IMG/VR virus record: IMGVR_UViG_2667527789_000007
Location: 1 to 23,072 of that record
Length of the DNA stretch: 23,072 nt
Source of the DNA: a virus
Taxonomy: Duplodnaviria; Heunggongvirae; Uroviricota; Caudoviricetes
Reading direction: 5' to 3' (one strand)
The position numbers were made by a program. Shown one piece after another: positions 1-3,000 of the stretch. How positions within the stretch are numbered: position 1 is the stretch's first letter; each line of letters begins with the position of its first letter.

Positions 1-3000
1 CCATAGTCCGGGTCACCATCGGCGAATACGGTGGCGATGGTTTTCTGAACGGCACGGTCTGTACCTGTACAGTTTACGGAGACACACAACGTTTTCACTG
101 GCGGGTGGATTACAGCACAAAAAACAAGCCCACAACAGCAAGCCTGACAGTAAATGGCTGGGAGCGTGATGAAGTAACCGGTCGTTTGCGGCAATGGGGC
201 AGTATTGAGGTAAGTGAGGATGATGGTAAGCTTATGACACAACACTCTATCCGTTTTCCTGTCGCTTTTCCGGTTGCTGCTCTGAATGCTCAGGTGTCTG
301 CAGTGGGAGACCCCAACGTCATTAAGATGTATACCCTGTCGAATCCGTCATTAGTGTCTGTGACTCTGATAACAGTCAGGGGATGCTACGGCAAGTTTTC
401 ATGGGAAGCGATCGGATACTGAGGGCATTGTATGGAACAGTATGTTTTTTCACCGTCAGAGAATATGTTTTATCCCCTGTCCCTGCGGCCGGTTTATGAG
501 GCAGCAGGGCGCTGGCCGGAAGACGGTATTGTGGTGGATTATGTGGTGTATAAAGTCTTTGCAGCGGATGCTGCACCGGCAGGTATGAAGCGGGGCGTCG
601 GTGCGGAAAAAATGCCGGTCTGGGTGCCGGTATCGGAGGAGGGCACGGAAACATGATGCATATCAGAAATTTTTCGTATTACACCCCGGCAGAGCCGGAT
701 GTTGCAGGCGCGATGTACCTGAAGTCTGAGGATGGTCAGGACTGGTATGAGTGTCAGGCGTTGTTTTCGCCGGAGACGCTGAAGGTGGTGTATGACAGCC
801 GGGGTGTGATTACGGGATACGGTAAGGAGACTGCCTTGTTGTGGCCGGTGAACCAGAGTGTGGCAGAAGTGCCGGATACCCCGGAGAGCCGGAAAATTGA
901 CCTGAGCGGGCGCTGGGGCTTTGACGGGGAGAAAATCACGGACCTGCTGACCGCGGAGAAAGCGCGCGGGATGAAGGGCGATGAAATTAACGCCTGGCGT
1001 AATGCGATGGAAGCGGCGAACTACACGTTTGAGCACAATGGGCGTAAATGGGACTACGGGAAGTCAACGCAGACGCGTCTTGAGCCGTCGGTGGCTGCAG
1101 CGAAAGCGGGGAAACTGCCGGAGGCGTTTTTCTGGACGGATGCGGAAAACAATGATGTGGAAGTGACAGCAGAAGAGCTTATAGCGCTGAGTGAAGCGGC
1201 AGAGCAGGCGATGTTCACCAAAGGGATGGAAATCCACGTCCGGCAGCGCACCATGAAGAAAGAGCTGGAAAAGCTGACCAGTGCGGATGAGATACTGGCA
1301 TACAGGGTTGGCTGGGCACAGGAATAACAGACAAAAAGATGGGGGACCATCACCTCCCCCATGAACTGAGTCAATTATACACTTGTGAAGTATTTACTAT
1401 GCGAATAAATACTGTCACGGAAAGTGCAGGCCTGGATGTGATGGAAATCATGTTTCCGGCGCATCCTGTTGATATGGATAATTTTTCAGATTTCCGGAAG
1501 TGAGAGTTTTTGGTGTTTCCATACCAGCCACAGTTGATGTGTGTTGTGGCGCTTGGCAGTGCGATTAAAGGAGCAGAGGGAATAAAAAACGGGGGCATGA
1601 CCAACCCCCGGTACAAGGAAGGAGTAACTACAATGGAAAAATTAATGAAGACCTTTAGTGCTACGTTATATGGCGAATAAAGACTGCCACAGGGAAGTTT
1701 GCAGAAACAGTGATGCCGATCGTGTTTCTGACGCTCTTCTCTGATAAGAGTAATTTTTCAGATTTCTGGAAATCTGTATTCTGCACAGGCGCAATTGTAT
1801 GCCGCCTTTAAAACTTCAATTCAGTGACTCACCTGCCATTCAAATTTTCGGATACCAGACAACCATGCCTTATATCGATATAACAACTATGCGCGGGATG
1901 ATGCCAGGCGTTATTGCATCTATGCTGCCAGATCATTCTGCTGTACTGGCAGAAAACTGTCATTTTCGCTATGGAGTGATCACGCCTGAACACCAGATGT
2001 CAGAGGCTGAGAAAACATTCGCGATTAAGCCGAAAACCATTTTTCATTACCGTGACGATTTCTGGTTTGCATGGACGGATGTGGTGGATGTGATCCGCAG
2101 TCCGGTCGCTCAGGACTCCCACGGGCGTATTTACTACACTGACGGGCGTTTTCCTAAAGTGACGGATGCGACCATTGCCACAAAAGGGGACGGGAATCAC
2201 CCGACATCATCGTATCGTCTGGGGATCCCCGCGCCGACGACAGCACCTGTCTGTACTGTTCAGCAGGGCGGTGATGTTTCTGACGATAACCCGAATGATG
2301 ACGAAACCCGGTTTTATACGGAAACCTTTGTCTCAGATTATGGTGAAGAAGGTCCGCCAGGTCCGGCGTCTCTGGAGGTAACACTCCGTACTCCGGGGAC
2401 TGCGGTACAGCTGACGCTGTCTCCGGTGCCATTGCAGAATGCCAGTATTAAACGCCGCCGGATTTATCGCTCTGCATCAGGTGGAGGAGAAGCGGATTTT
2501 TTACTTGTGGCTGAACTGGATGCATCCGTGCTCAGTTACACGGACAAAATACCGGGGAAAAACCTTGGACCTTCTCTGGCGACATGGGATTACCTGCCGC
2601 CGCCAGAGAATATGACAGGCCTTTGCCTGATGGCTAATGGTATTGCCGCCGGGTTTGCCGGTAATGAAGTGATGTTTTCGGAAGCGTATCTGCCGTATGC
2701 ATGGCCGGAAGTGAATCGTCACACGACGGCAGAAGATATTGTGGCTATCTGTCCGCTGGGAACGTCACTGGTGGTGGCGACAAAGGGGGAGCCCTATCTG
2801 TTCAGTGGGGTATCGCCTTCCACAATTTCTGGCTCCAGAATTCCTTCCATGCAGGCATGCCTGAGCCGAAGAAGTATGGTGGCGATGGAGGGATTCGTAC
2901 TCTATGCCGGGACAAACGGTCTGGTATCTGTTGATGTAAACGGTAATACAGCACTGGCAACGGAAAAGATTATTTCACCTGAACAGTGGCAGAGTCAGTT

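Follow-up and report, generated by a model that had tools for sequence, protein, structure and literature searches.

Between the tail-fibre assembly gene tfa and the next virion gene of the Shiga-toxin phage phiSTEC1589-Stx1c lie two diverged repeats, and the question is whether they are genes in their own right or the remains of something else. The sequence-only reading of this DNA (the window, all 23,072 nucleotides of IMG/VR record IMGVR_UViG_2667527789_000007) had taken them for two independent, paralogous small RNA genes. From sequence comparison we suggest, with a probability of about 0.7, that they are the orphaned 3′ ends of a minus-strand moron, duplicated and moved by tail-fibre cassette exchange. 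As leftover 3′ tails of a lost cargo gene, they would be ordinary scars of gene swapping and not demonstrated small RNA genes. The features of the locus are as follows.

653–1327, plus strand: tfa, tail-fibre assembly gene, 224 aa (Pfam DUF4376, 1.6e-17; PHROG 11571); left flank
1331–1362, minus strand: terminator A, hairpin ATGGGGGA-GGTGATGG-TCCCCCAT then CTTTTTGT (-14.5 kcal/mol)
1363–1485, minus strand: unit A untranslated tail (linker 1363–1397, core 1398–1485), haplotype i of the variable island in the multiple alignment
1486–1506, minus strand: box A, stop TGA (tca at 1486–1488) and the stub LSLPEI*
1503–1580, no strand assigned: inter-unit spacer, present only in loci with both units
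1581–1610, minus strand: terminator B, hairpin CGGGGGT-TGGTCAT-GCCCCCG then TTTTTTATT (-14.0 kcal/mol)
1611–1757, minus strand: unit B untranslated tail (linker 1611–1669, core 1670–1757), haplotype v
1758–1805, minus strand: box B and diverged ykgJ 3′ stub, …AAYNCACAEYRFPEI*, stop tca at 1758–1760
1799–3490, plus strand: 563-aa virion protein gene of a 933W-like (Sepvirinae) module (PHROG 511, 1e-277); right flank

Two repeat units between tfa and a virion gene

The offset between the repeats is constant at 272 nt (1470–1499 against 1742–1771, 87% identity; 1401–1418 against 1673–1690, 89%). Ungapped identity over 1398–1502 is 62% at this offset, compared with a mean of 25% and a maximum of 41% at all other offsets, and gapped blastn aligns the units at 73% identity over 103 columns. 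The description of the locus as two diverged direct repeats on the minus strand, in the moron position after tfa, is therefore correct. The “frame-breaking indels” also described are not there: the MAFFT alignment of the core is gapless, the two core ends share one register, and length differences are confined to the linker between core and terminator. The 40 mismatches between A and B fall on all four bases about equally (32–47% of the sites of each), and a diversity-generating retroelement with template and variable repeats was rejected because the substitutions are not adenine-specific.

A terminator scan, which found three terminator-like sites against 0.6 expected, bore out both intrinsic terminators, each predicted to act on the minus strand only. 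Terminator A (stem 1362–1339, then CTTTTT) begins 4 nt from the tfa stop codon and is 97–100% identical across all A-type loci; terminator B (stem 1610–1590, then T6) keeps its stem in the loci with both units, while its loop varies. The terminators had been said to face tfa, which holds for terminator A; terminator B faces unit A across the 78-nt spacer. We rejected the spacer as a decayed tfa 3′ end, since its local alignment score is no better than that of shuffles and its likeness to the tfa end is limited to the last 12 nt and not significant. The terminators would at most halt stray leftward transcription antisense into tfa and the tail-fibre gene, and the rightward late transcript would pass them unimpeded. 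On the right, positions 1750–1830 of the window are 98.8% identical to P13374 and relatives, and the next 19 kb or so to the right of the units are free of minus-strand genes.

The plus strand is annotated with two small proteins, of 54 aa (1339–1503) and 47 aa (1537–1680), but we consider it highly improbable that the units encode them. Six-frame comparison across the core haplotypes (described below) leaves two frames open, the haplotypes with a 1-nt indel excepted. One frame is open through the core in every haplotype free of an internal 1-nt indel, running to a conserved end …HPVDMDNFSDFRK, and the 47-aa ORF matches PHROG 35908 at 1e-35. However, no start codon is conserved, in haplotype ii the frame closes a short way upstream, and the 47-aa ORF spans terminator B together with the spacer. 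Among 5.8 billion proteins there are only seven clusters, all of short E. coli hypothetical proteins; a Pfam search gave no match. In locus L002, the same plus-strand frame extends as a 184-codon shadow ORF antisense to ykgJ. With a pN/pS of about 1 for the open frame and the greatest variation at second codon positions, the units are indeed non-coding, as first read, but on these other grounds. Coding on either strand was rejected, with no conserved start, pN/pS near 1 and no protein family to support it.

A cargo gene ahead of the unit in related prophages

The unit is present in 127 of 5426 complete E. coli genomes, and the match nearly always stops at a conserved box, TTTTCAGATTTCCGGAA, which contains the stop codon of an adjoining minus-strand protein gene (…LPEI*). 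An annotated YkgJ-family coding sequence adjoins the unit in 42 of the 60 sampled rows. The usual gene ahead of the unit is a 109-aa YkgJ-family (CxxCxxCC) cargo gene (“moron”); at other loci, a DinI-like or Mnt/Arc-like gene is followed by a ykgJ stub and then the unit. In the related E. coli prophages, these cargo genes have tfa on one side and the end of the prophage on the other. At seven loci (L002, L003, L004, L015, L034, L056 and L060), the unit stands at the 3′ end of a protein-coding gene and shares its terminator; in L003 and L004, unit B is directly 3′ of an intact 109-aa ykgJ-like gene, and the unit A tail of the window is 98.8% identical to the 3′ tail of the intact ykgJ-like gene of L002.

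In the window, the gene body is gone; about 6 of its codons are left in unit A and some 15–18 in unit B. In box A, ykgJ contributes only about 8 nt, and homology to L002 stops at 1501. With unit B, the blastn match to L002 (query 343–470) runs past the unit and takes in the 3′ end of ykgJ; the box B and stub region overlaps the start of the next plus-strand gene, and its ykgJ stub is also carried by 933W-like Stx phages. The truncations of ykgJ are nested, with about 31 codons left behind DinI, about 20 behind Mnt/Arc, and then 14, 7 and 6. The sequence-only reading had itself named degraded remnants of a known coding gene as the finding that would tell against it. The present result comes near to that: the box consists of the stop and last codons of a YkgJ-family gene. 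The greater part of each unit, however, is made up of untranslated tail and not of decayed coding sequence, and for this reason we retain a small probability for a 3′UTR-derived RNA.

Lambdoid morons are, reportedly from the work of Hendrix and colleagues, independent promoter–gene–terminator cargo units found between the late genes and the att site. The present unit resembles them in lying directly after tfa, often at the prophage end, in its orientation opposite to the late operon, in its own intrinsic terminator, and in the variable cargo (YkgJ-family, DinI, Mnt/Arc) found at it in relatives. It differs in that the window has the 3′ ends alone, twice, with neither ORF nor promoter, and in that these now sit inside the late operon of a 933W-like phage. 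In L006, a promoter-like site (TTGACA-18-AAAAAT) precedes dinI, and a transcript from it would end at the unit's terminator; in L002, which has an intact YkgJ ORF, a promoter-like site upstream of ykgJ was sought and none was found. Promoter, ORF and terminator between phage genes thus occur in the relatives, whereas in the window the terminator ends alone survive, which makes the locus a relic and not a complete moron.

The prophage YkgJ protein is close to that of K-12. Homology to the K-12 chromosomal ykgJ and to 134-aa enterobacterial orthologues ends at …KYGLP, and the tail is therefore a separate module fused to the gene. Decay of the C-terminal extension of the 134-aa protein was rejected as its origin, since DNA homology ends at the same point and nothing aligns past it, and so was the native 3′ region of chromosomal ykgJ, whose tail and terminator in K-12 are short, its own and unrelated. 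A distant-mode search with the unit matched only the 127 genomes, and hence not the core-genome ykgJ locus. STEC prophages are known to carry ykgJ-region DNA near cargo-gene loci downstream of tail-fibre genes (attB-in-PP_2; Nakamura et al. 2021, PMC8112680). The two cases share the capture of ykgJ-region DNA in STEC prophages and a prophage YkgJ near that of K-12. Identity with attB-in-PP_2 was nevertheless rejected because it concerns the wrong side of ykgJ: the ykgJ/ecpE intergenic region is 5′ of the gene, whereas the units are 3′ of it and show no likeness to the sequences flanking ykgJ in K-12.

Diverged cores between near-identical flanks

At the tfa-adjacent position (unit A), at least four haplotypes of the roughly 90-nt core exist, and they differ deeply (53–87% identity). 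The core of unit B makes a fifth, which is conserved in its own right. These cores sit between near-identical flanks. In most gene pairs, the ykgJ coding sequences are 91–99% identical compared to 53–87% for the adjoining cores; in one of the 21 pairs (L003/L004, both unit B), the core is 99% identical. The tfa-adjacent unit is less conserved than the neighbouring coding sequence, and the divergence of the tail exceeds that at third codon positions in the gene next to it. On the other side, tfa and the tail fibre are 94–99% identical across four haplotypes, and the last 400 nt of tfa keep this identity in most of 21 loci (exceptions: L002, L055, L057 and L058) irrespective of the unit haplotype. 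Haplotype, cargo gene, tail-fibre allele and terminator type assort independently; linkage of the haplotype to tail-fibre allele or cargo gene was rejected, none being seen among the compared loci. In the tandem loci, a core of 73–75% identity lies between flanks, terminator A and box A, that are 94–100% identical, while the unit B core is 94–100% identical compared to 81–94% for the spacer and linker. The tandem arrangement is kept in loci that differ by 12–16% overall, with both hairpin stems intact.

Our model for these patterns divides each unit into three parts: the closing codons of a YkgJ-family gene with their stop, about 125–150 nt of untranslated tail, and an intrinsic terminator acting in one direction. 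The gene that this tail closes in related prophages is either ykgJ-like and intact, or dinI-like or mnt/arc-like and substituted for most of ykgJ. The tail-fibre cassette (stf-tfa-terminator-tail) may be swapped between phages by recombination, with crossovers in the conserved stop-codon box and in the tfa/terminator end; the single-unit recombinant L076, joined at the box, supports this. One replacement would yield two tails in tandem, and a later exchange would place the tandem before a 933W-type virion gene that already bore a ykgJ stub. The comparisons themselves establish the homology, the box with its stop codon, the nesting of the truncations, the borders of the modules and the terminators; from these we infer the order of exchange events, and likewise that the units of the window have neither gene nor promoter of their own.

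It is improbable, in our view, that the box and terminator flanks are themselves a DNA-level exchange module under selection, with the tandem copies retained as recombination substrates. The sharp breaks in identity exactly at the box and at the terminator/tfa end would suit such a module, as would the independent assortment, the single-unit recombinant L076, which is joined at the box, and the shared ykgJ stub of the 933W-like phages. However, no selection for exchange is needed to explain the pattern, which crossovers within any stretch of conserved sequence would equally leave; searches turned up neither a recombinase site nor an inverted repeat, and the box spans only about 20 nt. Conserved boundary or linker sequences at the junctions of mosaic lambdoid modules are said to have been described by Susskind and Botstein and, in 2001, by Clark et al. 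As there, short conserved stretches flank the exchanged modules and identity changes abruptly at them; here, by contrast, a captured host-type gene supplies one of the boundaries with its decayed 3′ end, and segments as short as about 125 nt can be exchanged.

Promoters, RNA structure and a possible 3′UTR function

Two independent small RNA genes are not supported. The 5′ box of each supposed gene is the stop and last codons of a YkgJ-family gene that is intact in related prophages, and in addition the tfa-adjacent unit is less conserved than the coding sequence beside it, and promoter, family and extended structure are wanting. A simple sigma-70 consensus scan, which weak or alternative-sigma promoters could escape, found no site upstream of unit A; ahead of unit B, the nearest minus-strand match (9/12, at 1963–1935) is about 170 nt upstream, inside ORF67. 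The only match within the region (1418–1389) would start transcription about 20 nt before terminator A. The window as a whole is depleted of promoter-like sites (7 found, 19.9 expected). The lack of a promoter immediately upstream of the units supports the relic model. An Rfam search of 1200–1900 by E-value gave no match (best E=2.2). The Pas small RNAs of EPEC/EHEC prophages were rejected as counterparts; they are located near Q, RusA and lysis genes and not near tail fibres.

Structure was evaluated on 23 sequences in only five haplotypes. The unit family was confined to E. coli prophages in every collection scanned: exact-pattern scans gave nothing but chance matches in a set of one genome per species, four loci and no new haplotype in metagenomes, and IMG/VR was scanned in the same way. 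Deeper comparison is therefore impossible and covariation analysis underpowered. The RNAalifold consensus structure is nearly absent (-4.5 kcal/mol), and a single consensus fold for all haplotypes was rejected since the stable hairpin has a different register in each. Conserved structure is limited to the terminators and one short 5′ hairpin; both show some two-sided changes, which in the hairpin are UA to CG and CG to UA between A and B types. The units fold somewhat better than shuffled sequence (z-scores -1.2 to -2.9). An invariant CAUCAC is complementary to the terminator loop, and its region pairs with the arm and loop of terminator A in 88% of cells, compared to 40–70% in slid controls. 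Pairing of the core with GGAGGUGAUGG is 11/11 in haplotype ii and 10/11 in haplotypes i and iii. On the core side, four changes (columns 49, 50, 57 and 58) are wobble-compatible on the minus-sense RNA only, and columns 48 and 55 include unpaired cells. All changes in this long-range helix are one-sided, with no two-sided covariation, and the shuffle controls are weak (14/500).

Several of these observations run counter to the relic model. The tandem persists despite the overall difference between loci, and selection could maintain it; the unit B core is better conserved than its spacer and linker; the variable island holds invariant blocks and has no indels; and the CAUCAC pairing and folding scores exceed their controls. 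A rival reading is that the tail functions as RNA, with a small RNA released from the 3′ end of the mRNA where the gene is intact. In the window, a weak promoter that overlaps the beginning of the 563-aa gene (a TACAAT -10-like hexamer can be read at 1794–1799, minus strand) would then serve unit B, with read-through supplying the RNA of unit A. The diverged haplotypes would represent different allelic specificities, and pairing of CAUCAC with the terminator loop would modulate termination or RNA structure. The U-tailed terminators, the invariant blocks of the indel-free core, the conservation of the unit B core, the pairing of the core with its wobble-compatible changes, and the two-sided changes in the 5′ hairpin are consistent with this. 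We regard this reading as unlikely, given the missing Rfam family, the near-absent consensus fold with its shifting registers, the depleted promoter-like sites with none directly upstream of either unit, a divergence beyond that of third codon positions, the weak shuffle controls on the pairing and its lack of two-sided covariation, and a distribution restricted to E. coli prophages.

Enterobacteria do make small RNAs from 3′UTRs, for example CpxQ, SroC, DapZ and MicL. To our knowledge, these are conserved at least as well as their parent coding sequences. The units are like them in sharing the terminator of a protein mRNA and in a tail of about 125–150 nt from the stop codon, and unlike them in that, next to tfa, the tail has diverged much further than the parent coding sequence. 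Nevertheless, the diverged haplotypes between near-identical flanks, together with the complementarity of CAUCAC and the loop, lead us to retain a 3′UTR-derived function for the units at low odds. Similarly low are the odds of the specific proposal that the stretch of about 125 nt between ykgJ-type stop and terminator is a functional RNA module, either a 3′UTR regulator or a device tuning its own terminator through CAUCAC/GGUGAUGG, with allelic specificities shuffled independently of tail-fibre cassette and cargo gene; on this view, the window would have one copy each of alleles i and v. The diverged haplotypes between their near-identical flanks are the sole part of the locus that might merit experiments.

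On the relic model, the locus illustrates neatly and on a small scale how very short conserved boundaries serve for the exchange of tail-fibre cassettes and cargo genes, and such exchanges would leave nested scars, in 933W-type Stx phages included. It also urges caution, since a repeat with a terminator in the moron position mimics a pair of small RNA genes where related prophages show the tail of a decapitated cargo gene. For comparison, the window does contain a genuine prophage-borne small-RNA locus, a minus-strand hok/sok type I toxin–antitoxin system (Rfam RF01794) at 21072–21393. It has a 104-bit Rfam match and a Hok ORF, whereas the units have neither and are unrelated to it in sequence; its sok (21222–21393) is the sole match to Rfam at the gathering threshold in the whole window.

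The repeat, its terminators and the search for RNA genes

Escherichia phage phiSTEC1589-Stx1c (PQ600364.1) and prophages of several STEC genomes match the window at 100% identity, and from 1799 to about 20 kb every gene is on the plus strand. The two units and their surroundings are as follows.

Left flank of the units: tail-fibre gene and tfa (DUF4376)
1362-1339, minus: stem of terminator A (unit A, next to tfa), then CTTTTT; hairpin -14.5 kcal/mol
1610-1590, minus: stem of terminator B (unit B), then TTTTTT; hairpin -14.0 kcal/mol
Right flank of the units: 563-aa virion protein, 933W-like (Sepvirinae) module, PHROG 511

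The diverged direct repeat proposed by the sequence-only reading is real: its seeds at 1470-1499/1742-1771 (87%) and 1401-1418/1673-1690 (89%) share an offset of 272 nt, at which 1398-1502 shows 62% ungapped identity (other offsets: mean 25%, maximum 41%), and gapped blastn aligns the units at 73% identity over 103 columns. Both proposed intrinsic terminators were recovered by a terminator scan, on the minus strand only (3 terminator-like sites found against 0.6 expected). The frame-breaking indels that had been invoked are not needed, as the core ends share a register, the MAFFT core alignment is gap-free, and the difference in length between A and B falls between core and terminator. A DGR pair was considered and rejected because the A-B substitutions are not adenine-specific. 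Over window positions 1-20000, terminator-like sites are enriched (31 found against 18.8±4.3).

The proposal that the units are two independent, paralogous sRNA genes is not supported by the promoter and Rfam tests. The Rfam search gave no match at the units, though it recovered sok elsewhere in the window, and in a consensus scan unit A had no sigma-70-like site upstream. For unit B, the closest upstream site on the minus strand is a 9/12 match inside ORF67 (1963-1935), and the sole match within the units (1418-1389) has its predicted start just before terminator A; promoter-like sigma-70 sites are strongly depleted over 1-20000 (7 found, 19.9±3.9 in shuffles). RNAalifold with 23 distinct sequences gave -4.5 kcal/mol and no consensus beyond a weak long-range helix, and folding z-scores are modest and alike on both strands (unit A, -2.9/-2.9; unit B, -1.2/-2.5). 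Single-sequence folds contain a stable hairpin in every haplotype, its register differing, and some two-sided changes separate the A and B types in hairpin 1 (columns 12-16/26-30) and in the terminators. The units failed the conservation test for 3'UTR-derived sRNAs, and we consider a 3'UTR-derived or otherwise functional RNA rather unlikely.

Relation of the units to ykgJ

Of 5426 complete E. coli genomes, 127 contained unit A in a distant-mode search; the matches nearly always end at window position 1501, and an annotated "YkgJ family cysteine cluster protein" abuts the match in 42 of 60 sampled rows. The unit is immediately preceded, in the minus sense, by a minus-strand gene for a 109-aa protein in the homologous loci L002, L003, L004, L056 and L060. 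Its product matches Pfam CxxCxxCC (1.5e-11) and ends in …KYGLPEI*, and its stop codon is the "tca" within the box, the conserved 5' block of the unit (TTTTCAGATTTCCGGAA). Each unit thus consists of the final codons of this ykgJ-like gene, an untranslated tail and a terminator. Within the window, LSLPEI* is all that is left in unit A, and unit B retains …AAYNCACAEYRFPEI*, a diverged but alignable version of …EACNRARAKYELPEI* (36/48 nt identical by direct comparison); the blastn alignment runs on from unit B into the ykgJ 3' end.

K-12 YkgJ closely resembles the prophage protein (about 85%, judged by eye rather than computed), ends in …KYGLTPL* and has its own short tail and terminator, unrelated to the unit. 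Enterobacterial YkgJ orthologues are mostly about 134 aa long (…KYGLPPLYKDMLF…), and the gene sits between ompW and yciC in E. albertii and a related contig.

L082 and L083, 1501-1905: loci of 134-aa-type YkgJ orthologues
L075, 2354-2683: locus of a 134-aa-type YkgJ orthologue

The 109-aa versions, ykgJ of E. coli K-12 and the prophage copies, were shortened independently and lie at loci other than ompW-yciC. DNA homology between the prophage gene and the 134-aa orthologues ends at about …KYGLP, and in L084, an E. coli variant, divergence begins right after TTCCGGAAAT. Since homology stops there and the K-12 tail is unrelated, we rejected the native ykgJ 3' region as the origin of the tail, which is instead a distinct phage segment that has been fused to a captured, truncated gene. 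The ykgJ-region DNA reported from STEC prophages as attB-in-PP_2 (Nakamura et al., PMC8112680) is a related capture and a different element.

The ykgJ remnant is truncated to various degrees. Some loci have a stub of ~31 codons behind a DinI-family gene (Pfam, 4.6e-20), some have ~20 codons behind an Mnt/Arc-like repressor gene (1e-14), and further stubs upstream of the box measure 14 and 7 codons. In L006, a promoter-like site (TTGACA-18-AAAAAT) stands ahead of dinI, and the transcript would be predicted to stop at the unit's terminator, the classic moron layout. In L026 the repressor gene (6597-6896, minus) likewise ends in this ykgJ stub, the unit and its terminator, and is adjoined by a large plus-strand ORF (6937-8316). 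The unit-bearing prophages occupy differing chromosomal sites (next to potB, yodB, yfhH and the ompW region); the module therefore travels with the phage.

A variable core between conserved boundaries

Between paired loci, ykgJ coding sequences are 91-99% identical, and the adjoining 92-nt core only 53-87% in 20 of 21 pairs; for the 15 pairs of equal gene length, identity at third codon positions is 82-98%. L004 and L015, for instance, share 99% of the gene and 55% of the core, and the exception is L003/L004, both unit B, with a core identity of 99%. Where the unit shares 76-82% identity with the window, the final 400 nt of tfa share 94-99%, and tail-fibre/tfa sequences that are 92-98% identical yet occur with haplotypes i, ii, iii and iv of the core. 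Around unit A of tandem loci, the tfa end, terminator A and box A are 94-100% identical and the core that they enclose 73-75%; the unit B core is 94-100% identical. Such near-identical flanks around a diverged core mark a small variable island next to tfa, spanning columns 31-125 of the unit alignment (window 1363-1470 and homologues in L002-L060). The ~90-nt core next to tfa occurs in four or more haplotypes that are deeply diverged (53-87% identity), unit B adding a fifth, and haplotype, cargo gene, tail-fibre allele and terminator type (A, B or C) assort independently.

The core is indel-free and contains the invariant blocks ATCTGAAAAAT, ATCA, TCAC and TTCCGTGRCA. The loop of terminator A, with the 3' part of its 5' arm, is complementary to the invariant CAUCAC region of the core.

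1433-1443 with 1341-1353, minus sense: core-terminator A complementarity, CCAUCACAUCC with GGAGGUGAUGG

This pairing is 11/11 in haplotype ii and 10/11 in haplotypes i and iii, with 88% of cells paired (slid controls: 40-70%); of the changes on the core side, four are compatible with wobble pairing, and on minus-sense RNA only, and the minimum-energy fold of haplotype ii favours the pairing over the terminator hairpin. It is equalled by 14 of 500 shuffles and shows no two-sided covariation, and it may reflect function or chance.

That the units are non-coding, as first proposed, is borne out. In haplotypes that lack an internal 1-nt indel, two frames are open through the core, one on the plus strand (…HPVDMDNFSDFRK) and one on the minus strand; neither shows a conserved start codon. 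The plus frame has pN/pS = 0.97, with second codon positions the most variable, and the unit ORFs have no Pfam match. A search of 5.8 billion proteins returned only 7 clusters, all short E. coli hypothetical proteins. The 47-aa ORF at 1537-1680 (plus), which spans the spacer and terminator B, is matched by PHROG 35908 (unknown function), a family probably built from spurious ORF calls. Small plus-strand proteins, for which the open frame and this match might speak, are very unlikely products of the units. In L002 the plus frame carries on as an open frame of 184 codons (2040-2594, plus), reaching from terminator A across the unit and over the full length of the ykgJ-like gene in antisense; it has no PGAP annotation and is probably a shadow ORF.

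Origin and likely role of the tandem units

The spacer and unit B are never seen without the spacer's left end; most of the spacer occurs in 23 genomes, and no other homology to it was found. L003 has the order tfa'-A-spacer-B-intact ykgJ, and L004 the same, but there an IS66-family element (L004 1-1885, tnpA/tnpB/tnpC; E. coli Z1323MEC0001) cuts into unit A and has removed terminator A. The 933W-like Stx phages (P13374 and relatives) already carry a unit-B-type ykgJ stub and ~45 nt of decayed unit upstream of the 563-aa gene, and L076, a related Stx prophage, has a single unit whose A-type tail (haplotype iv) meets a B-type stub at the box. In the simplest history, the stf-tfa cassette would have been replaced repeatedly, the crossover on the right falling within the box or close to it, and one such replacement would have left the tandem tails behind. 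A module selected for exchange would also fit recurrent crossovers at conserved boundaries; the data do not require it, and we regard it as quite unlikely.

We suggest, with a probability of about 0.7, that the units in the window are orphaned 3' ends with neither gene nor promoter, whose terminators act leftward only and at most insulate. Their hairpins would end leftward transcription and leave unaffected the rightward late transcript, which must reach the virion genes; at most, they may keep stray antisense transcripts out of the tail-fibre gene and tfa. Among known systems, lambdoid morons with their terminators come closest, along with the boundary sequences conserved in mosaic phage genomes, and the units would be another example of this kind.

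Far to the right of the units lies a separate minus-strand locus.

21072-21393, minus: hok/sok type I toxin-antitoxin locus

It comprises the Rfam sok match (21222-21393, 104 bits) and a 51-aa Hok ORF (21072-21224; Pfam HOK_GEF, 1.2e-20). The overlapping CDS 21148-21303 of the phage record, 'tail fiber protein', looks like a mis-annotation.
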